From positions 18,820,946 to 18,884,945 of the forward strand of contig NC_092647.1 in the NCBI RefSeq assembly GCF_039555335.1: DNA of 64,000 nucleotides, in the 5' to 3' direction. A program made the position numbers and the translations under genes. The notes beneath the pieces are model-generated. The model was not told where the DNA came from, did no database searches, and saw nothing but the letters and a program-made list of their open reading frames with translations. The first letter of the stretch is position 1. Each line of letters begins with the position of its first letter. This DNA is from Amphiura filiformis (taxonomy: Eukaryota). Positions 5,064 to 56,494 of this stretch are shown in pieces.

Positions 5064-5125
5064 GTTTCCTGGAGTTATAAAACGCAGTATTCATTGCAGT
5101 ATGTAAGGAGTCTCGTTGGTATGAA

Positions 5126-16818: not shown

Positions 16819-16850
16819 AACTGAAACTGAAACTGAAACTGAAATATAGT
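16819..16850 (+). repeat. (AAACTG)5 microsatellite, the 3' tail of LINE-1
   Basis: Read directly. Confidence 0.8.
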
Positions 16851-18489: not shown

Positions 18490-18794
18490 ATTTTGGGGTA
18501 TAGTTTTGGTAAAAACGTTTTAATAACATTAAAATGTCGGGTTATACAAAGGTCATCAAAACGTTTTTAATACATATTAAAACACACTACAACGAACTTG
18601 TTGTCAAAATGTTATTGTAAAATGTTTTTGCAAACATGTTTTAACAAATATTTCGTCAACACCTAAGTTACATTATGTTATAAAAACGTTTTATACTCTT
18701 TATATACCTTTTATATAACCCGACATTTACACGTTTTTTGGCAATCTTTTTAACCTTTTGTGAATGTTGTCGGAAACGTGTTGTGTTTGCTGGG
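18490..18794. mobile_element. partial MITE-a (right TIR GTGTTTGCTGGG at 18783-18794) forming the 3' end of ZF gene B
   Basis: TTATATAACCCGACATTTACACG..GTGTTTGCTGGGG junction abutting a finger. The same junction is found at 26817-26828 (gene C). Confidence 0.55.
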
Positions 18795-19230
18795 GCGTCT
18801 TTTTGGCATGACTTCGCTCATGTGTTTTCAAATTACCTGACTTTGTGAAGCCTTTGTTGCAGTATTGACATATGTAAGGCTTCAATTTAGTATGAATTCG
18901 TTCACGTGTTTTCAAGTTACCTAACTGCATGAAGCCTTTGTTGTAGTATTGGCATATGTAAGGCTTCTCTTTGGTATGGATACATTCATGTCTTTTCAAG
19001 CTACCTGACTGTGTGAAGCCTTTGTTGCAGTATTGGCATAGGTAAGGCTTCTCTTAAGTATGAATTTGCTCATGTGTTTTGAAGTCACTAGACTGTGTGA
19101 AGCATTTGTTGCAGTATTGGCATATGTAAAGCTTCCCTTTGGCATGAATTAGTTCATGTGTTTTCAAGCTACCTGACTGTGTGAAGCATTTGTTGCAATA
19201 TTGGCACATGTAAGGTTTCTCTTTCTTATT

Positions 19231-19501
19231 GTTTGTTTGTTTGTTTGTTTACCCAGGTTGGTCCGTGAGGAACACATGCTAATCCATGGAAAACCATGGA
19301 CAGTTCCAAGCTCATACAAATGCACAAGCCTGGATAGCCAGTGTAGGCTAATATATGCATGTTGGCCTAGATAGCTTTGATAAACAAAGCAAGAAATGGA
19401 AGAAAATAGCTAGGAAAAAGAGAAAAGAGAGAAGGCCACTCCCAAACACAATTGTACAATTTTACTCTTAGCCCTTACTTCGTGAGAAAGGAAACTGGAA
19501 T
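19231..19501 (-). mobile_element. insertion of about 270 bp into a finger of gene B, with a (TTTG)5 terminus; SINE-like, family unknown
   Basis: The ZF consensus TTCTCTTTCGTATGAATTCGTTCATG is split between 19230 and 19502 by unrelated sequence that starts with TGTTTGTTTGTTTGTTTGTTT. Confidence 0.4.
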
Positions 19502-19677
19502 TCCAATCTGAATTCGTTCATGTATTTGTAAGTTCCCAGATTGTGTGAAACCTTTGTTGCAGTATTGGCATATATAAGGCTTCACTTTGGTATGGATACG
19601 TTCATGTCTTTTCAAATAAACAGAATGTGTGAAGCCTTTGTTGCAGTATTGGCATAGGTAAGGCTTCTCTTTTGTAT

Positions 19678-21193
19678 CAAACTGTGTAGACTCTCATTCA
19701 TCTGGGTATGTTGAAATTAAGATTTAATTTAAATCTGGTCAACCAGACATACCTATTTTTGACGGACGAACCGACGTTGCGACTGAAACCTTCAGTCTTC
19801 AGCTGGGTTGTGATGCAAATGACCTTGAGTACCGGACACTTCCGGTATTGATGACAATCGACGAGGAATGTCCTTTATGATCCTGTCCCAGCCGTGTGAA
19901 CACTTCATGAACGGACAAACTTGTCTCCTGATCAATTATGTGATCTACTTAGTCTCTGCTTAGATAACACCTACTTTTCGTACAGTGGAAAATTTTACCA
20001 ACAATGTCATGGATGTTCCATGGGTTCGCCCGTCTCACCGATTATCGCTAACTTGTATATGGAAAGATTTGAGCGCATTGCTTTGTCAATTTTTCCCGGT
20101 ATAGCGCCATCTAGATGGTATCGATACGTGGATGATACTTGGATTTTAATTAAATCCAACGAACTTGATAGGTTTTTCAACCACATCAATGAAATCGATC
20201 CCCATATCAAGTTCACGCAGGAAGGAGTGTCAAATAACAAACTCGCGTTTCTTGACTGTTTAGTGTCCGTGGAAGAAGATCGCTCCCTTACTGTGTCTGT
20301 TTATCGAAAACAGACACACACGGACCAGTACCTTCAATTCGGTTCCAATCACCCGCTCATTCAGAAACTCGGCGTGGTCAACACCTTGTTCCACAGAGCT
20401 GAGTCGATCATCACCAAAGACTCAGATAAGATTGCTGAACAACAACATCTTCGCAAAGCGCTGGGTAACTGTGGTTACCAGGACTGGGCCATAAACAAGG
20501 CCTTGAACAAGGACAGCAATAAACCCACCGCCAGTAGCACGAATCAGACGGGGAGAACAACAAGTATTACCATCCCATATCACGGAGACTTATCGGAAAA
20601 ACTCAAAAGAATCTATCGCGACCACGGAATTACCACCCACTTTAAACCAACGAACACGATCCGCCAGTCCTTAGTGCATCCCAAGGACAAGCAGCCCAAG
20701 GGGAGAATCAGTGGAGTGGTCTACGGGGTCCGCTGTTCCGAAGAGCAAGCCTGTCAAGACTCTTACATAGGAGAAACCGCCCAACCTCTTCACAATCGCA
20801 TGTTACAACATCGCAGAGCCAGCTCAGGTGGAAACGACTCATCAGTGTATTTACATTTGAAAGCCACCGGACACCATTTTGACACCAAGGATGTCCGAAT
20901 CCTAGATCGCGAGCATCGTTGGTTTGAGCGTGGAGTGAAAGAGGCAATCTGGGTGAGGGCTGAGCAACCATCCCTCAACCGCGGTGGCGGTGTCCGGGCC
21001 AAACTATCACACGGCTGGGACAGGATCATAAAGGACATTCCTCGTCGATTGTCATCAATACCGGAAGTGTCCGGTACTCAAGGTCATTTGCATCACAACC
21101 CAGCTGAAGACTGAAGGTTTCAGTCGCAACGTCGGTTCGTCCGTCAAAAATAGGTATGTCTGGTTGACCAGATTTAAATTAAATCTTAATTTC
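19678..21193 (+). mobile_element. truncated Penelope-like retroelement with inverted-repeat termini of about 195 bp (19713-19899 versus 21007-21193) and a 10-bp TSD TCTTTTGTAT
   Basis: Inverted repeats are near-perfect. TSD at 19668-19677 and 21194-21203. The right IR encodes the last 36 aa of the ORF. Inserted in a ZF finger. Confidence 0.8.
19921..21114 (+). CDS. Penelope-like RT (C-terminal motifs, YVDD) fused to a GIY-YIG endonuclease
   Basis: GSPVSPIIANLYME, WYRYVDDTWIL, then GVVYGVRC..YIGET (GIY-YIG). Confidence 0.8.
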   Translation: MSPDQLCDLLSLCLDNTYFSYSGKFYQQCHGCSMGSPVSPIIANLYMERFERIALSIFPGIAPSRWYRYVDDTWILIKSNELDRFFNHINEIDPHIKFTQEGVSNNKLAFLDCLVSVEEDRSLTVSVYRKQTHTDQYLQFGSNHPLIQKLGVVNTLFHRAESIITKDSDKIAEQQHLRKALGNCGYQDWAINKALNKDSNKPTASSTNQTGRTTSITIPYHGDLSEKLKRIYRDHGITTHFKPTNTIRQSLVHPKDKQPKGRISGVVYGVRCSEEQACQDSYIGETAQPLHNRMLQHRRASSGGNDSSVYLHLKATGHHFDTKDVRILDREHRWFERGVKEAIWVRAEQPSLNRGGGVRAKLSHGWDRIIKDIPRRLSSIPEVSGTQGHLHHNPAED

Positions 21194-22839
21194 TCTTTTG
21201 TATGATTTTTGTCATGTGTTTTCAAGTCACTAGACTGTGTGAAGCTTTCTTTGCAGTATTGGCACATGTAAAGCTTCCCTTTGGCATGAAGTAGTTTATG
21301 TGTTTTCAAGTTACCTGACTGTGTGAAGCATTTGTTGCAATATTGGCACATGAAAGGCTTCTCTTTCGTATGAATTCGTTCATGTATTTTCAAGTAACCA
21401 GACGTTGTGAAGCCTTTGTTGCAGTATTGGCATATGAAAGGCTTCTCTTTGGTATGAGTTCGTTCATGTGTTTTCAAGTTACCAGACTGTGTGAAGCCTT
21501 TGTTGCAGTATTGACATATGAAAGACTTCTCTTTCGTATGAATTCGTTCATGTCTTTCCAAGTCAACAGACCGTGTGAAGCCTTTGTTGCAGTATTGGCA
21601 TTTATATGGCTTCTCTTTGGTATGAGTTCGTTCGTGTGTTTTCAAGTGATTAGACTGTGTGAAGCCTTTATTACAGTATTGGCATATATAAAGCTTGTCT
21701 TTGGTATGAATTCGTTCGTGTGTTTTCAAGCTATTTGACCGTGTGAAGCATTTGTTGCAATATTGGCACATGTAAGGTTTCTCTTTCTTATGAATTCGTT
21801 CATGTGTTTTTAAGTTCCCAGATTGTGTGAAACCTTTGTTGCAGTATTGGCATATGAAAGGCTTCTCTTTGGTATGGATACGTTCATGCCTTTTCAAGTG
21901 ACAATAATGTGAGAAGCCTTTGTTGCAGTATTGACATGGGTACGGCTTCCCTTTTGTATGAATTTGTTCATGTGTTTTCAAGTCACTAGACTGTGTGAAG
22001 CATTTGTTGCAGTATTGGCATATGTTAAGCTTTCCTTTGGCATGAAGTAGTTCATGTGTTTTCGAGGTACCTGACTGTGTGAAGCATTTGTTGCAATATT
22101 GGCATATGAAAGGCTTCTCTTTCGTATGAATTCGTTCATGTGTTTTTAAGTTCCCAGACGTTGTGAAGCGTTTGTCGCAGTATTGGCATATAAAAGGCTT
22201 CTCTTTCGTATGAATTCGTACATGTATTTTCAAGTAACGAGACTGTGCGAAGCCTTTGTTGCAGTATTGACATATGTTAGGCTTCTCTTTCGTATGAACT
22301 CGTTCGTGTGCTTTCAAGTTACTAGACTGTGCGAAGCCTTTGTTGCAGTATTGACATATGTAAGGCTTCTCTTTCGTATGAATTCGTTCATGTCTTTCCA
22401 AGTCAACAGACTGTGTGAAGCCTTTGTTGCAGTATTGGCATATGTAGGGCTTCTCTTTTGTATTATTTTGTTTATGTACGTTTACCTTACTGATTGAAAA
22501 CGTTTTGTCATAATTTTGACCTTGGTAAAATAACAGTTGCGAATCGTCCTCCTCGTTCGTTTTTTTGCTTGATGAGTCATTACCACGTGTCCATTGGTCA
22601 GGAGAGGGTGACGTCAGAAAACCATCGCTTCTGCTCTTATCGGAGGTATTTATATTTCTGCTTGGAATGGGTATGAACTTCTTCTTATACGAGTAGTCAT
22701 ACCAATATGCACGAATCCACAGCTCATGATGACGCAGATGATGAAGATATCGATGATTATTATTAAAGAACCTTCGTCTGCAATATTTACACACGTGAGG
22801 CATCAGGTAATCCCATTCTCGTGGTCTTCTTAGAGGCAT
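21055..22839 (-). CDS. ZF gene B: N-terminal domain plus about 16 fingers. The last 46 codons (21055-21193) are read-through into the Penelope IR.
   Basis: MPLRRPREWDYLMPHVCKYCRRRFFNNNHRYLHHLRHH... ATG at 22837-22839 preceded by TTTCAG. Confidence 0.75.
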   Translation of the reverse strand: MPLRRPREWDYLMPHVCKYCRRRFFNNNHRYLHHLRHHELWIRAYWYDYSYKKKFIPIPSRNINTSDKSRSDGFLTSPSPDQWTRGNDSSSKKTNEEDDSQLLFYQGQNYDKTFSISKVNVHKQNNTKEKPYICQYCNKGFTQSVDLERHERIHTKEKPYICQYCNKGFAQSSNLKAHERVHTKEKPNICQYCNKGFAQSRYLKIHVRIHTKEKPFICQYCDKRFTTSGNLKTHERIHTKEKPFICQYCNKCFTQSGTSKTHELLHAKGKLNICQYCNKCFTQSSDLKTHEQIHTKGKPYPCQYCNKGFSHYCHLKRHERIHTKEKPFICQYCNKGFTQSGNLKTHERIHKKEKPYMCQYCNKCFTRSNSLKTHERIHTKDKLYICQYCNKGFTQSNHLKTHERTHTKEKPYKCQYCNKGFTRSVDLERHERIHTKEKSFICQYCNKGFTQSGNLKTHERTHTKEKPFICQYCNKGFTTSGYLKIHERIHTKEKPFMCQYCNKCFTQSGNLKTHKLLHAKGKLYMCQYCKESFTQSSDLKTHDKNHTKEKLRFNLNLVNQTYLFLTDEPTLRLKPSVFSWVVMQMTLSTGHFRY

Positions 22840-23885: not shown

Positions 23886-24239
23886 CTCATTCTTAGTCAG
23901 TTAAATATTATTTTAATAACTGTAAACAATTTTTTTAAAGCAAAACTAAGTTACCGTTATAAAAACTCCCCTCATTATAAAATGAACGAAGCTTGTTTAC
24001 AACTTCACGTATTCTGTTGCGCGTACTGCTAACTTCTTCCGCACTAGTCTACGCATCCAGCACGATACATACGCGCACCTCTACACGCGTGTTACGCATT
24101 ATCAAGACGCATGACGTGGGGTCGTCTACGGCCTGATAGACGGCACCCGAAATCATGCGATTGTCCAATCAGAAATGTGTCTACGAACTAGACCACTCCC
24201 ACTGACTAAGAATACACTAATATTTAGGCTTAAAGTACT

Positions 24240-25300
24240 AATTCATTTGCGACCATGCGATATGTAAAACGGACAACCGTAAAAAAGGACACCGAAATTG
24301 CTACACTGATTATGAGAAGAAACTAAATTGGCTGAAACTTTGTGTTGTTTTCTTTCTGTTGCATGCAATAGGCTTACATTATCACACGTACACCCATAAT
24401 ATGGTTCAATTGTAACGAGTTTAAGTGAACTTACTTTGAGATGTCGAGTTAAACGTTTCAGTTGTAGATTGCTCACTGTAGTAATCCTTAAATTCACAAT
24501 TATAATAATTCGCTTCGAATGCAGATAACATAAAAAGGTACTTTAAAAGCTACTGGATACGGTGGTTTAGCGTGCTTCTTAAAAATATCACTTCCCTGTC
24601 TATATGCTGCCGCATGAGAGTGAACAATAATACGTTATCTTGTTTTTAGTCAACGCGCGCGTCCAAAGGTCGATTGATATGCATACACGATGTAGAGCCT
24701 TCCGGTGCATTTAGATTCATCTAAATTCCCGGTGGATTATGTGTATTTAGATTGAAGATGTCCAAATAATTGTAATCTGTTTTACATGCACCTTTTCATG
24801 AGAACATGATACCTTACTTCATGATTATGATTGAACTGAAATTACTTTATGGATTTCACAGATTTGTCAGAGGGTAGTTCATAATTACAACGCAGCGTAC
24901 GTGCTATCAATGACTTTCTTTCCATTTTGCTAATTGGTAGATTATATTTTGATACAATTAACATCGTTTAGTTTGGGGCAATTTGTAACACGTCTAATGC
25001 TCTAAAGAAAGAGGGTATACATACATGTACAACATGAACAAAGAACAATAAGGCCGTATAAAATTAATTTGACATTGAAAAAATCTCCCTCCCTCATCAA
25101 TTCAAGAAAATTCTCTAGACGAGAACCAAAGCATCAATTTTATACCGCCTAATATGCGTGAATCAGAAAAAGTATAATCATTCTGTAACAGTTTTACAAA
25201 AGATTTGTGTAAATTTTACTTGATTTCTGTATCTTTTACGCTTAATTGTATCATTTTGATTCCTAGAGATTTCTTTTTTCACATCGGATGTGTCGGCATT
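24240..25300 (+). repeat. spacer segment A copy, ending exactly at the 3' end of pseudogene F
   Basis: Homologous to 9780-10810. Confidence 0.5.
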
Positions 25301-26828: not shown

Positions 26829-27245
26829 GGCGTCTCTTTGGCATGACTTCTCTCATGTGTTTTCAAGTTACCTGACTTTGTGAAGCCTTTGTTGCAGTAT
26901 TGACATATGTAAGGCTTCATTTTTGTATGAATTCGCTCACGTGATTTCAAGTTACCTAACTGTATGAAGCCTTTGTTGTAGTATTGACATTATGTAAGGT
27001 TTCTCTTTGGTATGGATACATTCATGTCTTTTCAAGCTACCTGACTGTGTGAAGCCTATGTTGCAGTATTGGCATAGGTAAGGCTTCTCTTTAGTATGAA
27101 CTTGCTCATGTGTTTTGAAGTCACTAGACTGTGTGAAGCATTTGCTGCAGTATTGGCATATGTAAAGCTTCCCTTTGGCATGGAGTAGTTCATGTGTTTT
27201 CAACTTACCTGACTTTGTGAAGCCTTTGTTGCAGTATCGGCACAT
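26702..27245 (-). CDS. ZF gene C distal fingers (two ORF pieces, 26952-27245 and 26702-26950, separated by 1-bp indels), ending inside the MITE-a
   Basis: Finger motifs. The C-terminus ..HAKETPQQTQHVSDN.. is encoded by the MITE-a TIR. Confidence 0.6.
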
Positions 27246-28555
27246 GTAAGGCTTCTCTTTGTATGAATTCGTTCATGTGTTTTTAAGTTCCCAGATTGTG
27301 TGAAACCTCTGTTGCAGTATTGGCATATGAAAGGCTTCTCTTTGGTATGGATACGTTCATGCCTTTTCAAGTGACAATAATGTGAGAAGCCTTTGTTGCA
27401 GTATTGACATGGGTACGGCTTCCCTTTTGTATGAATTTGTTCATGTGTTTTCAAGTCACTAGACTGTGTGAAGCATTTGTTGCAGTATTGGCATATGTTA
27501 AGCTTTCCTTTGGCATGAATTAGTTCATGATATTTCAAGCTGCTTGATTGTGTGAAGCTTTTGTTACAGTATTGACATACATATGGCTTTTTGTTGGTAT
27601 GGATTCGTTCATGTGTTTTCAAGTTACTTGACTGTGTGAATCCTTTGTTGCAGTATTGGCATACATATGGCTTTTTGTTGGTATGGATTCGTTCATGTGT
27701 TTTCAAGTTACTTGACCCTGCGAAGCCTTTATTGCAATATTGGCATATGAAAGGCTTCTCTTTCGTATGAATTCGTTCATGTACTTTCAGGTCATCAGAC
27801 CGTGCGAAGCCTTTGTTGCAGTATTGGCATAGGTAAGGCGTTTCTTTCATATGAATTCGTTCATGTCTTTTCAATTCACCAGACTGTGTGAAGCCTTTGT
27901 TGCAGTATTGGCATATGTAAGGTTTCTCTTTCGTATGAATTCGTTCATGTCTTTTTAAGTTCCCAGAGTGTGTGAAGCCTTTGTTGCAGTATTGGCATAT
28001 GAAAGGCGTCTCTTTCGTATGAATTCGTTCATGTGTTTTCAAGTTACCATACTGTGCGAAGCCTTTGTTGCAGTATTGACATATATAAAGCTTCTCTTTG
28101 GTGTGGATTCGTTCGTGTGTTTTCAAGCTACTTGACCGTGTGAAGCCTTTGTTGCGGTATTGGCATATGAAAGGCTTCTCTTTCATATTATTTTGTTCAT
28201 GTACGTTTACCTTACTGATTGAAAACGGTTTGTCATAATATTGACCTTGGTAACATAACAGTTGCGAATCGTCCTCCTCATTCGTTTTTTTGCTTGTTGA
28301 GTCATTACCACGTGTCCATTGGTCAAGAGATGGTGACGTCAGAAAACCATCGCTTCTGCTATCGGATGTATTTATATTTCTGCTTGGAATGGGTATCAAC
28401 TTCTTCTTATAGTCATACCAATATGCACGAATCCACAGCTCATGATGACGTAGATGACGCAGATATCGATGATTATTATTAAAGAACCTTCGTCTGCAAT
28501 ATTTACACACGTGAGGCATCAGGTATTCCCATTCTCGTGGTCTTCTTAGAGGCAT
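27200..28555 (-). CDS. ZF gene C: N-terminal domain plus about 11 fingers
   Basis: ORF of 451 aa. ATG at 28553-28555 preceded by TTTCAG. Confidence 0.8.
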   Translation of the reverse strand: MPLRRPREWEYLMPHVCKYCRRRFFNNNHRYLRHLRHHELWIRAYWYDYKKKLIPIPSRNINTSDSRSDGFLTSPSLDQWTRGNDSTSKKTNEEDDSQLLCYQGQYYDKPFSISKVNVHEQNNMKEKPFICQYRNKGFTRSSSLKTHERIHTKEKLYICQYCNKGFAQYGNLKTHERIHTKETPFICQYCNKGFTHSGNLKRHERIHTKEKPYICQYCNKGFTQSGELKRHERIHMKETPYLCQYCNKGFARSDDLKVHERIHTKEKPFICQYCNKGFAGSSNLKTHERIHTNKKPYVCQYCNKGFTQSSNLKTHERIHTNKKPYVCQYCNKSFTQSSSLKYHELIHAKGKLNICQYCNKCFTQSSDLKTHEQIHTKGKPYPCQYCNKGFSHYCHLKRHERIHTKEKPFICQYCNRGFTQSGNLKTHERIHTKRSLTCADTATKASQSQVS

Positions 28556-30809: not shown

Positions 30810-31900
30810 CATTTATCCAACTTCAAATATCTGGGATTAACGATGGCCTAGTACCAGCGACCGATCCAGGCGGAAAGCCTGGACTGGTTTTAGGAAGTTA
30901 GTGCACCTTCGAAGAAGTCCATCAATCTCCATCGTAATTAAAATCAGGCTTTTCAACACCAACCAGAGATGCTATTGCCTCAGTAGTTGTGGATCGTGGA
31001 GAAACTTTGTAGTCGTCTGCTCTGAATTCAAATGAAATGAAATAATGCCAAACGTCTCATAGTACTTAAATAATAAATTTTCACCTTTCAATATTTACTT
31101 TTCTTCAACAATCCCAATAAACATACATATGAAAGGAAGTAACCCAACAATATACTTAGCATGATCGTCGTGTAAAACAGCCAACATTTACAGTATTTAG
31201 CAAATAATTTAAGTGGGTGTTGTTGATGTATTTATCAAAAGCGCACTCTGCCAATTAAATTATAATGAACTTTTAAACAAAACTGGATTCAACATCTCGC
31301 CCAAAGTGATAACATTACCCACTGTTCAGTAGCCACTTGATTATTACGAATACTTCAGTCAGTGTGCTATGTTTAAAATGACCATCTAAAGTGACAAACT
31401 AAAAATATTCACGTTTTGTGTAAATATTTTTGAAAAACATTAGGACTCCAGACTGGGTCCAGACTCATATCCAGTAGGCTGAAAGTACTTATTATGTTGT
31501 GTCAACTAGACCATCATGACCATGTGATGTACAAAACAGAGAACCGTAAAAAAGGACAACGGAATTGCTATACTGCACATGAATTCTATGGTGTTCTTGA
31601 TGTAGTTACATCAATCGCACTCTGTCAATTAAATCATAATACATTTCTGAACAGAACTGGATTCAACATCTCGCTCAAAGTGTTAACATTACCCACTGTT
31701 AATGGAACTCAATAGCCACATGATCATTTCTAAAGTGACAAACCGAATACGTTCACGTTTTGTGTAAATGTTTTTGAAAAACATTATGGAGCTATAATCA
31801 GGAGCTATAATCACAGACCCAACAGTCATATCAAACGGATTCAACGATTTCTTTGTTAATGTAGGACCTAAATTAGCATCTCCTATTCCACTGATTTCTT
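30810..31900 (+). repeat. spacer segments B+A copy with an internal duplication of about 160 bp, truncated by the LINE-2 insertion
   Basis: Homology to 8278-8520 and 9480-9800. 31190-31450 and 31600-31800 duplicate each other. Confidence 0.5.
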
Positions 31901-32470
31901 GCGTACATTGGAAACGACACCCCCTGGTTCAAAAGCCGTTGTTGACTGTGGTATCTCCGCACAATTATGCAGGCATCTGGACTCTAAATCTTCTCCGTTA
32001 TCCTTGTCCTTTTCATCAGAATCCGCTTCAAAGTTCTCAATCACAACCTAACAGAAAAACTAAGCGCTGGAAAAAGCGTGGAAAAAAAGGTGGTCGCAAA
32101 TCACGACTACAGAACCTTGAACCAAACCCCATCCCCGTGCTCATAACTACTAGACTGGTTTCACCCACCCATTGTCAGTCTTCTGTAAATCACAAGTTCT
32201 TGCGTTCATTTCAAAGACAAAATGATAGAAATGTTAACATTCGACAATGGAACGCACGCTCAGTCCGTAAGAAAACTGTGGCAATTAGCGAAAACATCAT
32301 TGAAAACGATGTTGACATTTTCGTGATCACCGAAACTTGGCTTGCTGAAGACGACCCAGTAGTGATAGGCGAACTGCTACCCCCCGGGTATTCATTTATG
32401 AATTTCCCCAGAAAAAGTAGTGAGCATGGCGGTATTGGTATTGTTCACAAAACCCAACTGAGCCTTCAGA

Positions 32471-33940
32471 GTGCTCCTACATGCCAGTGTAATTGTCAAA
32501 AAAACTGGACTTAGAATAATATCAATCTACCGTCCCCCTCCGTCCAAAGAAAATGGGTTTAAAACGAGTGATTACCTGTGTGAATTTGAAGCTTTCTTAG
32601 ATGAAATTTGTCTCACTCCGACAAAAACCATTCTCCTTGGGGATTACAACATTCACGTTGATCTACCTTCTAAGCCAGAGGTGTCTAGGTTTCTGGATGC
32701 CCTCACCGTCAATGGTCTTCACCAGCATGTTGATTCACCAACACATAAGGATGGTCACATACTGGACCTCGTCATATCACGTCCTGAAGATGACCTAGTG
32801 GACAAGTGTTGTGTTTTGCCAGGCTTAGGATCTGATCACAAGTTGGTATACTGGACCTTAAATTGTATTAAACCAGCGCCACTCAGGGTTACGTCAATTG
32901 TTAGGAACATTAAAAACATTGACGCGATTTTATTTGCAAATGATCTTAAATCTGAAGTTGGAGGTCTTGATGCTCGGGGTCCTGTCGATGAGATGCTCGA
33001 TAAATTTGATTTATCCGTGTCTGGTGTGTTCGACGTTCATGCACCTCCTCGACAACGATCTCGGAGTATCAAACCTCGGCTTCCTTGGTGTAATGAAGAC
33101 ATTAATGTTGCCAGACGTGAAAGGAGAAGGATTGAGCGTAAATGGCGCAAATCCAAGAGTAATGTAGATCTTGAAGCCTATGTTGAGCAAACTAAATATG
33201 TCAGTAAATTAATCCAGTGTGCTAAGGAAGTATACTATAATGATATTCTTGAGTCTGCCGATACTAAGAACATGTACTTTACCTTAAACAAACTGTTGAG
33301 TAAGAACACTAGACAACTGCCTGATGCAGAATGTATGATTGAATTGTGCAATTCATTTGCAAGGTACTTTACTCAAAAGGTAATTAAGATCAGAAATGAA
33401 CGCGATGCAACACCTGTTACGTATAATGCTGCCCATACTATACTTGATGAGAGTTCTAACCTTAACACACCATCTTTTTGTGAGTTTAGGCATGTTTCTG
33501 CTGATGATATCAAGAAAATTGTGCTCGCAACACCTAACAAGACTAGTTCTTTAGACACAATTCCTATGGAGTTGCTCAAAGATAATATCAATGTTTTGAT
33601 CCAACCTCTTGCCAGTATATCGTTCATCAATCACTCAGTAGCGGAGTATTTCCTTCAAAACTTCGTGAGGCGGTGGTATCTCCCATCCTCAAAAAATCCA
33701 CGCTTGACAAAAACATCCTTAAGAACTACCGCCCTGTCTCAAATATCAGGTACCTCTCGAAAATCATGGAGAAAATTGCTTGTGCTCAAATCAAAGATCA
33801 TCTCAGTACCAATTGCCTTCTTGAGGATTTCCAATCTGCGTACAGACAGCAGCACAGCACGGAGACGGCTTTACTACGAGTCGAAACGGATATCCTGTGT
33901 GCTTTGGACAATTATAAGGCTGTGGCTGTTGTGTTGTTAG
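32471..33940 (+). CDS. LINE-2 endonuclease and RT N-terminal segment
   Basis: See element evidence. Confidence 0.65.
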   Translation: MLLHASVIVKKTGLRIISIYRPPPSKENGFKTSDYLCEFEAFLDEICLTPTKTILLGDYNIHVDLPSKPEVSRFLDALTVNGLHQHVDSPTHKDGHILDLVISRPEDDLVDKCCVLPGLGSDHKLVYWTLNCIKPAPLRVTSIVRNIKNIDAILFANDLKSEVGGLDARGPVDEMLDKFDLSVSGVFDVHAPPRQRSRSIKPRLPWCNEDINVARRERRRIERKWRKSKSNVDLEAYVEQTKYVSKLIQCAKEVYYNDILESADTKNMYFTLNKLLSKNTRQLPDAECMIELCNSFARYFTQKVIKIRNERDATPVTYNAAHTILDESSNLNTPSFCEFRHVSADDIKKIVLATPNKTSSLDTIPMELLKDNINVLIQPLASISFINHSVAEYFLQNFVRRWYLPSSKNPRLTKTSLRTTALSQISGTSRKSWRKLLVLKSKIISVPIAFLRISNLRTDSSTARRRLYYESKRISCVLWTIIRLWLLCC

Positions 33941-34461
33941 ACCTATCCGCAGCCTTCGACACTGTAGATCATCAGATACTGTTGAAACGGCTTTCGAATA
34001 CTTTTGGTATTTCTGGAACAGTCCTGAATTGGATAAGATCCTATCTCAAGGACCGCTCATTCCGGGTGTGTCTGGGGGATAATTCGTCCATTAATCACAC
34101 GCTTGACTTCGGCCTCCCACAAGGATCTGTTGTTGGACCTTTATTCTTCAGCATGTATACTTATCATATCGGTGCCATCATACGGAATCATAACATCTGC
34201 TACCATATGTATGCCGATGATGTCCAACTTTATCTGACGTTCAACCCAAAAGTGGATGGAGACGGTCATCGAGCAGTGACCAGATTGGCAGCCTGCATTG
34301 ATGAAATTAGTGCATGGATGACTCAGAATAAACTGAAACTTAACAATGATAAGCCGTTACATTACCACAGAAAGTTGCCATCATCTTGTCCGTGCTCTGA
34401 TTCTGTCCCGGCTCGACTACGCCAATGCTCTGATGTTTGGGATTTCGGCCAAAGACCGTAA
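33673..34461 (+). CDS. LINE-2 RT core
   Basis: FDTVDH, YADDVQLY. Confidence 0.7.
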   Translation: MVSPILKKSTLDKNILKNYRPVSNIRYLSKIMEKIACAQIKDHLSTNCLLEDFQSAYRQQHSTETALLRVETDILCALDNYKAVAVVLLDLSAAFDTVDHQILLKRLSNTFGISGTVLNWIRSYLKDRSFRVCLGDNSSINHTLDFGLPQGSVVGPLFFSMYTYHIGAIIRNHNICYHMYADDVQLYLTFNPKVDGDGHRAVTRLAACIDEISAWMTQNKLKLNNDKPLHYHRKLPSSCPCSDSVPARLRQCSDVWDFGQRP

Positions 34462-34855
34462 GCAGCTGCAGAAAGTCCAAAACAGGGCCGCAAGAATTGT
34501 TTTTAGAGCCGAAAGACTGCATCCATCAGCACCGCTACTCAAACACCTTCATTGGCTGCCAATTGAACAGCGAATCAAGTTCAAAATCTTGCTTATCACC
34601 TTCAAAGGAGTCCACGGCCTCATTCCACCTTACCTCGCCGAATTTCTTCAGAGATATTCATGCGGTAGGCCAAACTTGCGTTCCAGTGATGACAGTCTCC
34701 TTTTACGCAATCCACGAACCTACAGAAACGACGGTGACAAGGCCTTCTACGCTGCAGCCCCCCGACTATGGAACTCCATACCTGCTTCCCTTCGTCATTC
34801 CTCCTCTGTCCTTGCTTTTAGGAAGGGTCTTAAGACCTATTTATTCCCCGGTTGA
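34346..34855 (+). CDS. LINE-2 RT C-terminal conserved domain
   Basis: RLDYANALMFG..LHWLPIEQRIKFKIL. Confidence 0.65.
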   Translation: MISRYITTESCHHLVRALILSRLDYANALMFGISAKDRKQLQKVQNRAARIVFRAERLHPSAPLLKHLHWLPIEQRIKFKILLITFKGVHGLIPPYLAEFLQRYSCGRPNLRSSDDSLLLRNPRTYRNDGDKAFYAAAPRLWNSIPASLRHSSSVLAFRKGLKTYLFPG

Positions 34856-35425
34856 TACCACCGCCTTATTCACGCCCCGTAAAATTGTGTTTTGTGGAGT
34901 TTTTATATGTATTTTGTTTGTTTTTATCCATGAACTGCTATGCCGGACTGGCATCTTTTATAACATGTGTTCATGCAGCATGCTCCTCTGCTTTAATCAA
35001 TTATTGTGTGTTTTTGATGTATTTTGCTTGCGTACATTTAAATTTGCTATGTTTTTGTAAAACATTTTTGCATGTTGGTTGCTACTGTTCTTCCAAATTG
35101 AGCTGGTCACGCTATGTATTTTATCATGTAATTGTTGTGTATATCGTGCTGCCTATGAGTCTTTCATATGTAATAGGCCCTCCAGCCACATAGCGGGAGT
35201 TCCATATTGAGCTGTTTTAAAATTGTATAATTTCCTGCTCTTTTAAATAATGAGCTGGTCTCGCTAAGTATTTTTAACTTTTTATCGTATTTCTTGCTAA
35301 ATTATTGGGTTTTTGTTTTCTTGCCATATGTAGTGCTATTTTTGTTGTTTTTATAATGTATTGTATTGTAAAGCGCTTTGTACATGAAAAGGCGCTTAAT
35401 AAATGATGCTTATTATTATATTATT

Positions 35426-37250
35426 ATTATCTCTAATTCATAACTCTGGCAAAAATTATTACGATTATCTAAGTGAACCATGCCAAAACAGTATATTTCT
35501 GAAACCAATAGTTGAATCAGAGATCTTGAAAATAATCAACAAATTCAACCAGAATAAAAGCGCAGGTCATGACGACATAGGAAACTTCGTTGTAAAAAAA
35601 ACTTGCTCAACCTCTTACAGCAATCTTTAATTTGTCTTTGTCAACAGGATATGTTCCTACCCAATTAAAATTAGCTAAGATAATCCCTATCTATAAAAAA
35701 GATGATGCCGAGATATTATCAAATTACAGACCTATATCACTTCTGCCGGTTTTCTCCAAAATCCTTGAAAGATTGATCTTTAATAGAAGTGTTGAATTTA
35801 TTAATAATAATAACATTCTCAATGATAAACAATTTGGATTTAGAGCCAATCATTCCACTCAAATGGCAATTATGCATCTGGTTGATAAGATAAATAATGC
35901 AGTAGAAAAAATGATGATACTACTATAGGAGTGTTTCTAGACCTATCAAAAGCTTTCGACACTATTGACCATAGTATTCTACTTCATAAATTAGAACATT
36001 TTGGATTCAGAGGAATTGCTTATGACTGGTTCAAGAGCTATTTAAGTGATAGAAAACAATAGAAAACAACACTTCAATAATAAAAATTCCAAATATAAAA
36101 GTATAATTTGCGGAGTCCCTCAAGGCTCAATATTAGGTCCTTTACTATTTATATTGTACATAAATGATATAACGAATACATCGACTATATTAGACTTTGT
36201 ATTGTTTGCTGATGATACGACAATTTGCTAATCAAATGTCATTAATAAATAAAGAGTTATCCGAAGTGAGTAACTGGTTTAAAGCAAACAAACTTTCTGT
36301 AAATGCTAGTAAAACTAATTACATGATTATGGGTACCCCTAGAATGACTTCGATAAATAATTCACAAGAAAACAGAGATATTACTTTGGATGGTACAAAC
36401 TTGCAAAGGGTAACCGAAACCAAATTTTTAGGTGTAATTATCGATGAAAATCTCACATGGAAAAACCATATCATCGGAATCTCAAAAACAATCTCACGGA
36501 ATATAGGTATGATAAACAAGTTGAAATTTTTTATACCTGGGCGTGTTTTGCACACGCTTTATTGTACGCTTGTCTTGCTTTATATTAATTATGGTATACT
36601 TACATGGGGGAATGCATGTAAAACATATCTTGATCAAATACATTTGCTCTAAAAATGGGCCATGAGAACCATTTCAAATAGCCATTATCGAGGCCATTCT
36701 GGACCACTATTTCATAAATTCAATATGCTCAATGTATATGATATATTCAAACTAGAACTAGGTGTATACATGTATAAATATTCTATTAAACAACTGCCAT
36801 GTTCATTTGACAGTTTCTTTCTAAAACGATCCGATATTCATAGCTATCACACAAGAAACAGTAATAGTATAATCAAACAAGAAACAAGTAAGTATTCACT
36901 GGTCATTCAATCTGGACTACCGGCCCACTGTTATGGAATTCCCTGAACGATAACCTTAAAGTAGCAAACTCAATCAAACATTTTCGAAACAAATATAAAA
37001 CACAGCTAATCTCATTTTACAACTAGTTCTTGGAGCCCCGTTTTTGTTCTTGTGTGATAGGCTTAATATACTCTGTTTGTTTGTTGTTGTATTAATTTAG
37101 TTCTGTAAGGGGATGGTCAATGCTGGCCTTAATGGCCTTTCGATCATCTCCTCCATAATTGTCTTGTTTTATTTTTATGATGTTGAATTTCTTTGTATTT
37201 TGTTGTTTTTTATTATGGAAATAAAGATTCATTCATTCATTCATTTGTAT
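35426..37250 (+). mobile_element. 5'-truncated copy of the LINE-1 family (LINE-3), RT region only, several frameshifts, (CATT)4 tail; inserted directly after LINE-2
   Basis: KSAGHDDI, LAKIIPIYKK, CGVPQGSILGPLLFILYINDI (identical peptide to LINE-1 at 15550), LSVNASKTNYMIMG. Confidence 0.65.
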
Positions 37251-37254
37251 GACT

Positions 37255-38170
37255 CCAGACTTGGTCTTCACTCAGGTCCACCAGGCTGAAAGTACTAATT
37301 CTGTTGGTTCAACTAGACCAGACGATAAACAAAACAGAGAACCGTAAAAAGGAACACCGAAATTACCATGCTGCACATTTATGAGAATAAACTGGGTTTG
37401 CTGCAACCATGTGTAAATTGTTTGCTTTCGTTTGCAATACACTATAACAAAAAATTTAACATGCGCATCTACAATATCACATATGGTTCAACTGCAATAA
37501 GTTTAAGTGAACTTACTTGGAAGTGAGCTTGGAAGCTCTCGGATATGACCAGTTAAACGTTTCAGTTGTAGACTGCTCACTGCAGTAATCCTGAAATTGA
37601 CAATTCGCTGAGCTCGAGGCTGAGCTTCGTGTGCAGTTCCGGGGTGCAGTTAACATAAAAAGATTCTTCTAAAGCTACTGGATACGGTGCTTTTAAAATA
37701 CCACGTCCCTGTAAGCTCCTGTATGCACGAGAGTGAGCAATAATTATACCCGGGGGGGCACTCCAACTTTGGAGGTGACGCGTATGTAGGGCAGTTAAGA
37801 CACCATTTTTCAGCGGCGCTGTCACCCAAAGACCCCATATTTTTTTACGAACACATGCTCTGTCACCCGAAGACCCCTATTTTTCCATTTGATCTGTCAC
37901 CCAAAGACCCTTACAAGTTCAATTTGAACAGCAACTTTCATTTATCACTGATTTTGCCAAAAATCATACTCTCACCCAATGACCCCATATTTTTGACATT
38001 TTGCTCTCACCGAGCCCTACACCTATATCCATTTCATATTGAAGTGCCCCCAGGAATTATACGTTATCTGGCATTTTATAATCAACGCGTCCGAAGGTCA
38101 ATCGATGTGCATACACGATCCTGCAGATAGAAGTGGCGTGTATTTGGTTTGAAGATGTCCGTATTCAGCA
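37255..38170 (+). repeat. spacer segment A copy interrupted by a nested MITE-b
   Basis: 37255-37749 plus 38054-38170 is collinear with 9780-10330 and 50160-50720. Confidence 0.55.
37742..38061. mobile_element. MITE-b copy 2 (element 37750-38053, 304 bp) with 8-bp TSD AATTATAC
   Basis: TSD at 37742-37749 and 38054-38061. The uninterrupted target AATAATTATACGTTATCTG is present in the paralogous spacer at 50620. Confidence 0.7.
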
Positions 38171-38805: not shown

Positions 38806-39278
38806 GGGGTGGTGCAATAATTATGTGTACCCCGGGGTGAATTCTCAAAATGGTCTGCCAAAATCGCTTGCCCCCCTTTGGCCGTGCCAAAAACCTTTTC
38901 CCCCCTTTCGACATGCCAAAAACCTTTGCCCCCCCCTTTTGACGTGCCAAAAATCTTTGCCCCCCTTACACATGCAAGATTTTGGGGAACCCGAATTTAA
39001 AACCTTAAATTGTCTTAACATATATTGCGAGCGCAGCGAGCAGGAAATTTTGCATATTTGAACGTGTTCGTAACGTTTTCCTACGCCTTTTAGGGCGTAA
39101 TATAGAAACGGTGCCCAAAATATCTGTGCCAAAAATTGCTTGCCCCCCCTTTCGACCTGCCAAAATCGCTTGACCCCCCTTTCGACCTGCCAAAAATGCT
39201 TGCCCCCCTTTTGGCCTGCCAAAAATCTTGCCCCCCTATAATTCACCCCGGGGTACACATATAATTATTGCACCACCC
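38806..39278. mobile_element. MITE-c (473 bp): TIRs of about 35 bp, GGGGTGGTGCAATAATTATGTGTACCCCGGGGTGAATT, TAA flanks, two arms each carrying 4 direct 25-bp subrepeats (TGCCAAAAATCGCTTGCCCCCCTTTCGACC)
   Basis: Read directly. TAA at 38803-38805 and 39279-39281. Confidence 0.65.
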
Positions 39279-39877
39279 TAAGAAAGCTTAAAAGTGACGT
39301 GAGTATATTTATATTTAATTAAATAATTAGGTGGCTGGCATTTTCTTCGGAAGGGGGTGGGTCTCAAATATACTTGGGGGGGGGTCATACAATTTTTAGA
39401 CCAAAAATAGGGGGGTTATAATTTTTTAACACCCAAAATAGGGGGTTTGTAGAATTATTAAGGGCTGGCGACTAAAAATTTTCACGTGCTGCGTGCGCAT
39501 TCTTTAACTTCACAATCAAAATGTGCATACAATCTATAGCTATATAATGCAAATTTTTTATGCACTTCACGCGTCTTCATCGCTCTTAGCCTTTGGCGCA
39601 CTCCGCTTTAGTTCCGGCAATGAATGATTTGTCTTGAGTGCGTGTAGGTGGAAGGGGTGGGGGTGGGGTTGGTCATAAACATTTTTGACCCAAGATAAGG
39701 GGGTTGTTAAAAAGTTTTGGCCGCGATAGGGGGGTCATAAAAAATTGACTCTGGTCACTGACATATTTGGGACCCCCTTGTGAAGAAAATGCCAGCCCCT
39801 TATACTAGGTGCTTTACATGAATTGAATCCTACAGTCTGAGGGCAGATGACACACATTCGATGGGTGTAAGGTGCTT

Positions 39878-39998
39878 GCATGGAAGGTCATTAGTTCAAA
39901 TCATCATCCACTGACCTCCAGACTGGCGCTCCAGAAGACATGCAAATGCATTTGCATGTCTTCTGGAGCATGTCTGGAGGATGATTTGAACTGATGAC
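39878..39998. repeat. 120-bp near-perfect palindrome centred on CATGCAAATGCATTTGCATG
   Basis: GGAAGGTCATTAGTTCAAATCATCATCC..CTCCAGAAGACATGCAAATGCATTTGCATGTCTTCTGGAG..GGATGATTTGAACTGATGACCTTCC. Confidence 0.7.
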
Positions 39999-40015
39999 CT
40001 TCCGTGCAATAATTA

Positions 40016-40342
40016 GGGGCTGTGCAATAATTATGAGCCGGGGGGAGGGTAAAATTTCCGAACGGTTCGCCAAAAATTGCTTGCCCCACCCTCTCTCAAC
40101 CTGCCAAAAATTATTCGCCCCCCCCTTGCGCATGGCCGCATGCCAAATTTTTGGGATCCTAATTTACAAGATACATGTTGTGAGCGCAGCAAGCAGGAAT
40201 ATTTGCGTATTTAAGCATTTCTGTACTGTTTTCCTAAGCCTTTTTAGAGCGTTTTATTTAAAAGGCGCCACATGAATGTGTGCCAAAAATTCCTAGCACC
40301 CCCAATTTTACCCTCTAGGGCTCATAATTATTGCACAGCCCC
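40016..40342. mobile_element. MITE-c copy (327 bp): TIR GGGGCTGTGCAATAATTATGAGCC, TTA TSD (40013-40015 and 40343-40345)
   Basis: Read directly. The internal core GTGAGCGCAGCAAGCAGGAATATTTGCGTATTTAAGC is shared with 38990-39060. Confidence 0.7.
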
Positions 40343-46578: not shown

Positions 46579-47241
46579 TTAAGGGCTGGGGTATGAACGT
46601 TTGGACAGTATTTATTGTGGGACATTAGAGCACATCAGACATGTCGAATTGCATTCTGAATACGAAGAATGTCATTCTGATATCAAATAATTTTGATTTT
46701 TGAAATTCGCAATTTAATACACATTTTATGGCAAATCATTAAAATTGATATTTTTGATATTTAACAGTACTTGAAGTAAACTTTATAAATCTGATGATTT
46801 ATACTTAAAGTGTATGTAGGTGGGATGAAAAGCCGACGATCAATTGAAAATTTTGACCTTTCGTATTGAAAATATGGATTTTTTCCCAAAACACCAAAAA
46901 AATTAGGTCTTTTGGGAAAAAAATCCATATCTTCAATATGAAAGGTCAAAATTTTCAATTGACCGTCGGCTTTTCTCCTGCTACATACACTTTAAGAATA
47001 TGTCATTAGATTTATATAATTTACTTCGAGGACTGTTATATATCAAAAATTTGAAAAATATCAAATTTTTACAATTTGTCATAAAATTTGTATTATATTG
47101 TGATTTTCAAAAAATGGAAATTATTTAATATCAGAAAGACATGCTTCGTATTCAGAATGCAATTCGATAGGTCTGAGGTGCTCTCATGTCCCATAAAAAA
47201 TACTGTCGAAACGCAATAAACGCTCATTTTAGATCCCTTAA
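46579..47241. mobile_element. TTAA-flanked foldback element (655 bp, 46583-47237) with termini GGGCTGGGGTATGAAC.../...GATCCC
   Basis: TTAA at 46579-46582 and 47238-47241. The arms are near-perfect reverse complements meeting at about 46905. A near-identical copy lies at 59425-60091. Confidence 0.7.
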
Positions 47242-48352: not shown

Positions 48353-49357
48353 TTACAGTATTGACATAATTATGTAAGGCTTCTCCTTGGTATGGGTTCG
48401 TTCATGTCTTTTCAAGTGACCAGACGTTGTGAAGCTTTTGTTGCAGAGTTGGCATAAGTAAGGCTCCTCTCTCGTATGAATTCGTTCATGTGCTTTCAAG
48501 CTACATGCCTGTGTGAATCCTTTGTTGCAGAATTGGCAAGTATAAGGTTTTTCATTGGTATGAATTCTTTCATGTCTTTTCAAGCTATATGACAGTGTGA
48601 AACCTTTATTGCAGTATTGGCATTTGTAAGGCGTCTCTTTGGTATGAATTCTTTCATGTGCTTTCAATCCACTAGACTGTGTGAAGCCTTTGTTGCAGTA
48701 TTGACATGTGAAAGGCTTCTCTTTGGTATGAATTCGTTCATGTGTTTTCAAGTGACAAGACTGTGTGAACCCTTTGTTACAGTATTGGCATATGTAAGGC
48801 TTCTCTTTCGTATGAATTCGTTCATGTCTTTTCAAGCAACTTGACTGTGTGAAGCATTTGCGGCAGTATTGGCATATGTAAGGCTTCTCTTTGGTATGTG
48901 TTCGAGTGTGTTCTTTCAAGTCACATGACTGTGTGAAGCCTTTTTTACAGTATAAACATATGTAAGGCTTATCTTTGATGTGGGTTCGTTCATGTACGTT
49001 TATATTACTCACGATTGGAAACGTTTTTTCATAACGTTCACCTTGGTAATATTCCAATTGCGAATCGTTCTCATTCATTTCTTTGCTTATTGAGTCATTT
49101 CCACGTGTCCAATGGTTTAGAGATGGTGATGTCAGAAAACCATCTGTTCTGCTATCATCGGCGATGCTTATCTTACTGCTTGGTATTGGTATCGGTATCA
49201 ACTTCTTCTTATAGTCATACCAGTATGCACGAATCCACAGCTCATGATGACGCAGATGACGAAGATATCGATGATTATTATTAAAGAACCTTCGTCTGCA
49301 ATATTTACACACGTGAGGCATTAGATGGTCCCATTCTCTTGGTCTTCTTAGAGGCAT
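48353..49357 (-). CDS. ZF gene E: N-terminal domain plus about 7 fingers
   Basis: ORF of 334 aa. ATG at 49355-49357 preceded by TTTCAG. Confidence 0.8.
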   Translation of the reverse strand: MPLRRPREWDHLMPHVCKYCRRRFFNNNHRYLRHLRHHELWIRAYWYDYKKKLIPIPIPSSKISIADDSRTDGFLTSPSLNHWTRGNDSISKEMNENDSQLEYYQGERYEKTFPIVSNINVHERTHIKDKPYICLYCKKGFTQSCDLKEHTRTHTKEKPYICQYCRKCFTQSSCLKRHERIHTKEKPYICQYCNKGFTQSCHLKTHERIHTKEKPFTCQYCNKGFTQSSGLKAHERIHTKETPYKCQYCNKGFTLSYSLKRHERIHTNEKPYTCQFCNKGFTQACSLKAHERIHTREEPYLCQLCNKSFTTSGHLKRHERTHTKEKPYIIMSIL

Positions 49358-49439: not shown

Positions 49440-49729
49440 CTTGTTAGTTCTACTTCCATGGAAGGAACTTTTGGCAAGCCGAGGGGTTGGGGGAAAGCGA
49501 TTTTTGGCACACATTCTTGGGGCGCCTTTTAAATAAAATCCTCTAAAAAGACTTGGGAAAACCGTACGGAAACTCTTAAATATGCAAATTTTCCTGCTCG
49601 CTGCGCTTGAAACATGTATATAGACCATTTAAGGTTTGCAAATTGGGATCCCAAAAATTTGGCATGGCGATTTTTGGCGAGCTGTTCGGAAATTAACCCC
49701 CGGGAGGCTCATAATTATTGCACAGCCCC
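49440..49729. mobile_element. MITE-c copy in opposite orientation, left TIR missing, right TIR GGCTCATAATTATTGCACAGCCCC followed by TAA
   Basis: Collinear with the reverse complement of 40016-40342. Confidence 0.6.
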
Positions 49730-49794
49730 TAAGCATACCCAGAACTGAGACAGACATCACTGTAAGTGCATGGAGTGCATATAAAGCACGTATC

Positions 49795-50720
49795 CAACTT
49801 GAAATAATTATATTCCATGCTGAGGTCACTTGCGGACTGTTTTTAGGAAGTTAGTGCTCCTGCGGAGATGTCCAATAATCTCCATCTCAACCACAATCAG
49901 GGTTCTTAACACCACCTGTATAACAGTGCTTTCATGGCTGTGAATCCTACGGTGTTCTTCATGTATTTATAAAAAAGCACACTCTGTCAGTTAAATTATA
50001 ACGAACTTCTGAACAGAGCTGGATTCAACATCTCGCCCAAAACTCAATAGCCACTGGAGCATTTGCAAAAAGAGGTCAATTTTGCTATGTTTATAATGAC
50101 AATCTAAAGTGACTATTATATACATTCATGTTTTTGCGTAAATGTTTTTAAACAACATTAGGATTCCAGAGTGGGTTCTCACTCAGGTCCACCAGGCTGA
50201 AAGAAGTAATTCTGTTGGGTCAACTAGACCACGCGATATATACAAAACAGAGAACCGTTAAAAAGAACACCGAAATTACCATGCTGCGCCTTATGAGAAT
50301 ATTAAACTGGGATTCCTGCCACCATGTATTGGTTGCTTTCGTTTGCAATACACTTTAACATGCGCATCCACAATATGGTTCAATTGCAACAAGTTTAAGT
50401 GTTCTTACTTGGAAGCGGGCTTGGAGGTTCTTGGATATATCCCGTTAAACGTTTCACTTGTAGTAATCCTGAAATTGGCGATTATGATTATTCGTTGAGG
50501 TTCGAGTGCAGTTAATATAAAAAGGTACTTCCAAAGCTGAATAAAGTGGTTCTACGTGTGCTTTTAAAATACCACGTCCCGGTCCCTATGATGCTACATG
50601 AGAGTGAACAATAATTATACGTTATCTGCTTTTTATCAACGCGTCCAAAGGTCGATCGATGTGTACACGATGTAGATCCTGCAGATAAAAGTAGCATGTA
50701 TTTGGATTGAAGATGTCTGT
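49795..50720 (+). repeat. spacer segments B+A copy
   Basis: Homologous to 8278-8520 and 9590-10330. Confidence 0.55.
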
Positions 50721-51354
50721 ATTAGATAAATGTCAACCTTGAGCGCAGAACTTTTGTAATCACAGCCCCATGAAATTTGGCACGGATGTAGAGGTTTCAA
50801 CCTTCAAACTCAAATAGAGAGCTTTTTAAAAATATTTGCTCAGTTTTTGAAGAAAAAGGTGATTTTCCCAATTTTTGGCTGGAAAATACGTAATTTGGAT
50901 TTTAACGATCTCGATACCCTAATTAATATAGATTTTAAAAGTTTATAACCATAGTAGCCATACCAAAATTCATGAATTTATGAATTGGAAGTAAAAATCC
51001 TGTCCGCAATGTGATCTACCTAAAAATCCAAGATGGCCGCCGTTTCTATGTCAACCATATGCGCGGACATTTTCTTCCGCCCATTCAAAATAGTTTCACC
51101 TGAGTACCATGAAAATAGGACCAATATTGCTTTTCCCTCGCAAGCTCTACCTACAACATAGAAAATAATATAAAATAGATTAGAAAATATTGATGAAATA
51201 GCAAGTTTATATTCAAAGGAATCCAAACTAATACAAGAAATATTAGGGGGACAATTTATCTTTATTGAGCTTAATTTTCATCATAAAGTAGCTTCACAGA
51301 GAAATAGGATACGCAAAAAATGCATTGCTAGTGTAAAAATGTGTTTTGTAAACA

Positions 51355-55573: not shown

Positions 55574-56050
55574 GCTTCTATTGTAACACATTCCATCCAC
55601 CATTTACAACATTGAAAGTTAGAAGCCGTAAATCAGAGATTTCAGTTAACGCCAAACAAGACGTAACTCAGTACGTACAGGAATACTAAAGAATATCTTA
55701 AATTCCACTATTCTTATATATATTGACATTTGTTATAATGGATAGGATACAACATCCGGTTATTATAGGCTAAACTTGACTTAAATCAGACACTTACATT
55801 GTGAGTTATACTTAGGTTTAGTTCGGTAAAAATATTAAAACCTGTTCTCAAAATTGCATTTCTTGAGTTAAGGCTTTTCTGGTTCTCAACCCTCGAATAA
55901 ATAAATAGAAAGATAACAAAATAATTCGTTCATGTCTCTTCATGATATCACACCTTGTGAAACATTTTTCGCAGTATTAGCATAAGGCTTCTCTTTAGTA
56001 TGAATTCATTTATGTGTTTAGTAACTAGACAGTGGGAAGCCTTTGTTGCA

Positions 56051-56494
56051 TTATTTACCTATGTAAGGATTATCTTTGATATGAACTCTTTCATGCTTCT
56101 TCAAATTATTTGACGCTGCAAAGCTTTTATTGCAATACTGGCATTTGTAAGGCTTCTCTTTGGTATGGATTCGTTCATGTATTTTCAAGTTCCCAGACTG
56201 TGTGAAGCATTTTTTGCAGTATTTACATATGTAAGGCTTCTCTTTGGTATGAATTCGTTCATGTCTTTTCCAGTGACCTGACTGTGTGAAGCCTTTATTA
56301 CAGTATTGACATACGTAAGGCTTCTCTTTCGTATGGATTCGTTCATGTGTTTTCAACTTAAATAACTGTGTGAAGCCTTTGTTGCAGACTTTGCATAGGT
56401 AAGGCTTCTCTTTCGTATGAATTCGTTCATGTGTTTTCAAATTACATAACTGTATGAAGCCTTTGTTGCAGTATTGGCATATCCCAGCAAACAC
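56051..56494 (-). CDS. ZF gene G distal 5 fingers (continuation after the MITE-a insertion)
   Basis: Begins ICQYCNKGF, which completes the linker KETPY|I broken at 57174. Confidence 0.65.
   Translation of the reverse strand: MFAGICQYCNKGFIQLCNLKTHERIHTKEKPYLCKVCNKGFTQLFKLKTHERIHTKEKPYVCQYCNKGFTQSGHWKRHERIHTKEKPYICKYCKKCFTQSGNLKIHERIHTKEKPYKCQYCNKSFAASNNLKKHERVHIKDNPYIGK

Follow-up and report, generated by a model that had tools for sequence, protein, structure and literature searches.

The window, meaning the whole 64,000-nt stretch of DNA that was analysed, has a GC content of 36%, sparse long ORFs and no Rfam or tRNA matches. It holds a series of zinc-finger genes, further finger-array fragments and several retrotransposon copies:

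6234-7523, 21055-22839, 27200-28555, 48353-49357 and 57149-58642, minus strand: five tandem single-exon C2H2 zinc-finger genes
4852-5572, 18793-19684 and 55982-56482: further finger-array fragments
12961-16843, 31939-35060 and 19921-21114: non-LTR retrotransposon copies with APE endonuclease and reverse transcriptase domains

The start codons of the zinc-finger genes lie at 7523, 22839, 28555, 49357 and 58642. The five genes have in common an N-terminal region of ~110 aa, 65-68% identical between paralogs, followed by 7-14 fingers with an 84-bp periodicity, and the best protein match was to the jellyfish Rhopilema esculentum (57% identity). The best reverse transcriptase matches were to a TARA marine metagenome scaffold (69%) and to assembly GCA_029980105.1 (68%), and the retrotransposon copy at 12.9-16.8 kb showed ~72% DNA identity to elements in GCA_029980105.1 and in an ENA assembly. 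Exact look-ups of four window ORFs gave no record. The five tandem zinc-finger genes and the non-LTR retrotransposons indicate an animal-type genome; a cnidarian-like marine invertebrate as the host is a weak guess. An apparent tandem array with a ~14-bp period lies just upstream of the 12961-16843 retrotransposon, at ~12.1-12.8 kb.

Four of the zinc-finger genes are preceded, 0.8-2.9 kb upstream, by a discrete block of ~600 bp that we call spacer-A. The blocks are 66-79% identical to each other, and one of them is interrupted by the element analysed here:

37248-38165, plus strand: spacer-A block interrupted by the element (homologous parts 37248-37749 and 38055-38165)
50159-50723, plus strand: empty paralogous spacer-A block with a single AATTATAC at 50613-50620 (76% identity)
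9766-10297, plus strand: empty paralogous spacer-A block (78% identity)
24226-24691, plus strand: empty paralogous spacer-A block (67% identity)
31441-31580: partial spacer-A copy

The interrupting element (copy 2) is 305 bp long and non-coding. A longer form (copy 1, 510 bp) lies near the start of the window, and a BLAST search of the window yielded no further copies. Their parts are as follows:

37742-37749, unstranded: left TSD of copy 2, AATTATAC
37750-38054, plus strand: MITE copy 2, bordered by TIRs and an exact 8-bp TSD and missing from the three paralogous spacer-A blocks
37750-37767, plus strand: 5' TIR of copy 2, CCGGGGGGGCACTCCAAC
37822-37836, 37863-37877, 37897-37911 and 37972-37986 (span 37822-37986), plus strand: four direct subrepeats TCACCCRAWGACCC(C/T) in copy 2
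38038-38054, minus strand: 3' TIR of copy 2, reverse complement CCTGGGGGCACTTCAAT
38055-38062, unstranded: right TSD of copy 2, AATTATAC
368-375, unstranded: left TSD of copy 1, ATATACAC
376-885, plus strand: MITE copy 1, the longer form
376-400, plus strand: 5' TIR of copy 1 with an expanded G-run, CCCG(13)CACTCCAAC
592-700, plus strand: central segment of copy 1, missing from copy 2; outgroup copies also have a central segment
708-822, plus strand: 60-bp tandem duplication in copy 1 (TRF array of 1.9 units, 94% match), the extra unit having no counterpart in copy 2 or the outgroup
866-885, minus strand: 3' TIR of copy 1, reverse complement CCCGGGGAGGGCACTTCAAT
886-893, unstranded: right TSD of copy 1, ATATACAC

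The earlier note on this DNA had the left TSD of copy 2 in its correct place, but its right TSD (given as 38054-38061) was set one nucleotide too low; the element ends at 38054. Its second copy at 376-885, with termini common to copy 2 and an exact 8-bp TSD of its own (ATATACAC), was recovered as described. In copy 1 a C comes next on both sides of ATATACAC, so that a 9-bp TSD is formally possible there.

For the empty-site test, copy 2 and one copy of its TSD were deleted in silico and the reconstructed sequence was searched against the window. The reconstructed spacer-A aligned to the three paralogous blocks with the junction uninterrupted, and at the insertion point AATTATAC is present just once in the 50.6-kb paralog (...GAGAGTGAACAATAATTATACGTTATCTG...). 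This bears out the earlier proposal that copy 2 sits within one spacer-A copy and that the site at ~50.6 kb is its empty counterpart. A paralogous empty site of this kind is the classic proof of insertion with an 8-bp duplication, and the chance identity of two random 8-mers from the window is 8.4 × 10−5. No paralogous empty site was found within the window for copy 1. Calling the insertion 'nested' was right insofar as the element lies inside spacer-A, but the wording is loose, since spacer-A is a ~600-bp intergenic block accompanying the zinc-finger duplicates and need not be a transposon.

One could argue that nothing was inserted at all, and that the element was ancestral to spacer-A and precisely deleted elsewhere, or was spread by segmental duplication; the empty sites are indeed paralogous and not orthologous. 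However, the same precise deletion would then be needed in three independent paralogs, leaving exactly one 8-mer, and the element is also present at 376-885 between unrelated flanks with a different 8-bp duplication, as well as at dozens of unrelated sites in a second organism (see below). We regard this explanation as effectively refuted and take the element to have been inserted.

The insertion can also be placed in time. Since the spacer-A blocks are 66-79% identical to each other, as against 95.7% (5' 207 bp) and 96.9% (288 shared columns) for copies 1 and 2, the insertion is later than the block duplications. Copy 2 is therefore a relative timing marker, later than the duplication of the zinc-finger gene unit. 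Beside the insertion-bearing spacer, at 38971-40290, lie inverted pieces of the sequence immediately upstream of the zinc-finger gene that starts at 49357 (49469-49732), and local tandem and inverted repeats occur at 38807-39278; this suggests a rearrangement of the 49357 zinc-finger gene unit.

All four element ends in the window carry imperfect TIRs of ~16-20 nt with the form CC(C/T)-G(n)-CACT(C/T)CAA, and the terminal motif GGGGGCACTYCAA, allowing up to one mismatch, occurs in the window at these four ends only, where 0.06 matches are expected. The 5' G-run is 7 G long in copy 2 and 13 G long in copy 1. Inward of the TIR, a TGG...AGGTG stretch is common to both ends. The subrepeat motif TCACCCRAWGACCCC (TCACCCRAWGACCC(C/T) in copy 2) has 10 matches in the window (0.22 expected), every one of them within the element and on the plus strand; copy 1 has six and copy 2 has four. 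All window ORFs of 150 aa or longer lie outside the two copies. When copy 2 was folded as single-stranded DNA, the folding potential was not significant relative to shuffled sequences (z = −0.83) and complementarity was confined to the TIRs; a fold-back structure for the element was rejected on this basis.

Long near-perfect inverted repeats are present elsewhere in the window, at 46741-47068 and 59600-59898, with arms of 65-75 nt at 85-92% complementarity and of 145 nt at 87% with a 9-nt loop. These appear to form a second family of MITE-like elements, fold-back or palindromic in type and with no relation to copies 1 and 2.

Based on these observations, we consider the element a genuine, recently mobile MITE, that is, a non-autonomous class II (cut-and-paste) family in an animal genome, and give this reading a probability of about 90%. 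The element is shorter than ~600 bp, lacks coding capacity, has TIRs and occurs as dispersed copies in unrelated contexts; its TSD is of fixed length, differs in sequence between copies and is matched by an empty site. Hairpin-folding propensity, often listed for MITEs though not essential, is absent from copy 2. The earlier interpretation as an insertion of MITE type with TIRs and an intact 8-bp TSD agrees with the exact AATTATAC on both sides of copy 2. A retroposon (SINE) would share the small size, the absence of coding capacity and the internal repeats in the same orientation, but the element ends in TIRs, lacks a tail of A-rich or simple-repeat sequence and is flanked by a duplication with a constant length of 8 bp, and similarity to tRNA, 7SL or 5S sequences is absent (Rfam 0 matches, ARAGORN 0 tRNA genes). 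A SINE origin is thus very improbable, and we retain the DNA transposon. The element sequences were not found in a literature search, and the family is one not described before, although the kind of element is thoroughly familiar and biologically ordinary.

Related copies were found outside the window. In a metagenome scan, 32 contigs contained the internal subrepeat, all of them from one WGS project, the animal assembly JAAUXV01, whereas the subrepeat pattern had 0 matches in viral and prokaryote-genome collections and the window-specific 5' end had 0 matches in viral and metagenome scans. By BLAST, the 5' and 3' portions of the JAAUXV01 elements are 72-85% identical to the window copies; with a permissive global aligner, the identity was 86-90% to the window copies and ~90% among the JAAUXV01 copies themselves. 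These elements measure ~370-430 bp between their terminal CACT and AGTG anchors, and their ends have the same architecture as those in the window (5' CC(C/T)G(n)CACTCCCATTCCGGAGG; 3' CATATTGAAGTG-C(n)-(A)GG(G)). The length of the terminal G/C homopolymers (window 376-391 and 37750-37758, and the JAAUXV01 copies) ranges from ~4 to 13 nt, with frequent interruptions, while the ends are otherwise conserved; this length variation is probably due to slippage.

At least 30 related copies lie on separate JAAUXV01 contigs in unrelated flanks of host DNA; rhodopsin-type GPCR genes, single-exon and in tandem, are found in these flanks, as is a leucine-rich-repeat ORF. Where both ends of a copy are present on a single contig, the flanking duplication agrees at 8/8 positions in L027 (GCCATCTA) and at 7/8 in L025 (GTGAACTT/C), and is decayed in L022; in the remainder, several duplications are eroded or undetectable, or the copy is truncated. 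Had no TSDs been reproduced at other copies, the earlier note would have considered its case lost; L027 and L025 reproduce them.

Contig L029 (JAAUXV010118003.1) at 3450-3630 is identical in sequence to L036 (GCA_029980105.1, JARPNA010000621.1) at 2080-2260, and from this identity JAAUXV01 and GCA_029980105.1 are taken to represent one species. The shared stretch contains a truncated element copy, of which the 5' ~180 bp are left, between tandem single-exon GPCR genes and adjoining an apparent GPCR gene remnant. The longer contigs L006 and L029 were considered as possible autonomous relatives and rejected, their ORFs encoding rhodopsin-type GPCRs and what we take, from reading the translation, to be a leucine-rich-repeat protein; the latter ORF had no Pfam match. 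Neither the window nor ~110 kb of related loci yielded an autonomous partner or a transposase.

The relatives also give a polarity to the size difference between the two window copies. This difference is 205 bp (206 bp in the earlier note) and is made up of a non-repeat centre of ~109 bp, one extra tandem unit of ~60 bp, a 24-bp block and the longer terminal G-run. In an outgroup alignment of both window copies and seven JAAUXV01 copies, the relatives have the 24-bp block that is absent from copy 2 and carry a central segment at the position of a ~167-bp gap in copy 2, but they lack the extra ~60-bp unit of copy 1. The presence of the 24-bp block and of a central segment in the outgroup implies that copy 2 is chiefly an internal-deletion derivative. 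By sequence comparison, only ~60 of the 205 bp is subrepeat expansion, in the form of the tandem duplication in copy 1. The earlier explanation, that copy 1 is longer through extra subrepeats, thus applies to the ~60-bp unit, while the rest is mostly deletion in copy 2. By inspection, the large deletion in copy 2 is associated with a 2-bp TG microhomology. Drosophila hAT MITEs are also thought to originate by internal deletion (PMC3942097, PMC3517528).

The best-supported mechanism for these events would be a DDE-type transposase making 8-nt staggered target cuts. A transposase encoded elsewhere would recognise the ends and excise the element, mobilising it in trans; the element would then be inserted at a target whose two strands had been cut 8 nt apart, and repair of the stagger would give the 8-bp duplication. 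Copy 2 would have entered one paralog of the ~600-bp intergenic block of the C2H2 zinc-finger cluster after the blocks had diverged. Its short 305-bp form would derive from a longer form, mainly via internal deletion, and slippage would probably have added one 60-bp tandem unit to the long copy. The TCACCCRAWGACCCC subrepeats and the inward TGG...AGGTG stretches are candidate transposase-binding sites.

The family can now be defined by its consensus ends, its 8-bp TSD and its deletion and duplication variants, and in this form it can be masked and tracked in this genome and in JAAUXV01/GCA_029980105.1. Recent mobility of the element is established by the data, and the general understanding of transposition is unchanged. 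The point of wider interest is which transposase moves elements with such unusual C/G-homopolymer termini.

The leading candidate is the hAT superfamily, because it is the commonest superfamily with 8-bp duplications in animals. That the element is a hAT MITE, moved by a hAT transposase that may be one of the Buster family, is nevertheless a tentative assignment to which we give somewhat less than an even chance. The general terminal rule for hAT elements is YARNG and, in the division into Ac and Buster types, the target consensus attributed to the Ac family is nTnnnnAn. The 8-bp duplications and the TIRs of ~16-20 nt are inside the published hAT ranges (8-bp TSD, TIRs of 5-27 bp; PMC3517528, PMC3942097). 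Moreover, AATTATAC and ATATACAC both have TA at positions 4-5 and so fit the Buster target consensus nnnTAnnn (PMC3499496, PMC3517528), although two such matches in the window may reflect merely AT-rich targets. The relatives do not repeat this pattern: in 26 JAAUXV01 end-flanks (a few of them spurious regex matches; borders ambiguous by ±1 nt), TA was present at positions 4-5 in 1/26, T at position 2 in 5/26 and A at position 7 in 11/26, so that neither the Buster nor the Ac target preference is visible in this small sample. The termini of the window and JAAUXV01 copies also begin with CCG, CCC or CCT (CCGGG, CCCGG, CCTGG) and not with the CAG or TAG of characterised hAT elements and hAT MITEs such as Mar (PMC3517528), the CCYGGGG termini match no verifiable superfamily signature, and a transposase with CCYGGGG-type ends was not found in the window or the related loci. 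The earlier label 'hAT-like' is therefore compatible with the 8-bp TSD and the short TIRs, but draws no support from the termini, the target flanks of the relatives or the transposase search.

The poor fit of the terminal sequence to hAT, and the fact that the hAT target preference is not seen, favour instead another superfamily with 8-bp duplications (Mutator-like, P, Merlin, Zisupton or Novosib) or an undescribed group. The duplications of these five superfamilies can be 8 bp long, but hAT is by far the commonest such superfamily in animal genomes, and we know of no CC-initial terminus in any of the five. We judge this alternative plausible, if on balance doubtful. It is also conceivable, though improbable, that the transposase belongs to a lineage of marine invertebrates that is not yet described, either a divergent hAT clade or another superfamily with 8-bp duplications, for which the TCACCC subrepeats would be the binding sites.

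The Mar and BuT2-MITEs of Drosophila willistoni resemble the window family in their short non-coding form, short TIRs and 8-bp TSDs, in having internal-deletion derivatives of varying length, and in intact TSDs that denote recent mobilisation (PMC3517528, PMC3942097). They differ in their ends, since the TIR of Mar starts with CAG(G/A)GG, within the terminus CAG(G/A)GGTAGGC, whereas the ends here are CC(C/T)G(n) with a length-variable homopolymer (PMC3517528). In addition, Mar has been linked to a reconstructed hAT transposase (PMC3517528), whereas the window family is known from non-coding copies only. The MITE-like elements that contain tandem repeats (pearl/DTC84 of bivalves and DINE-1-like elements) are alike in their internal repeats, which have the same orientation and a variable copy number, and in end modules with short inverted repeats (PMC3879986). 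However, the core repeats of that group are ~160 bp long and accompanied by a microsatellite, and its putative TSD is an AA dinucleotide (PMC3879986), while the window family has subrepeats of ~35-60 bp, no microsatellite module and an 8-bp TSD, which points to a different transposition mechanism.

CCC...GGG termini are characteristic of piggyBac, and the outermost bases of several copies here agree with them. As piggyBac targets TTAA with a 4-bp duplication, and the duplications here are 8 bp and not TTAA, piggyBac was rejected. In one related copy (L028, 1775-1800), a long C-tract immediately precedes the 5' G-run (CCCCCCACCCCCGGGGGGCACT); the tract may represent a palindromic extension of the terminus, or the 3' end of another copy may join here.
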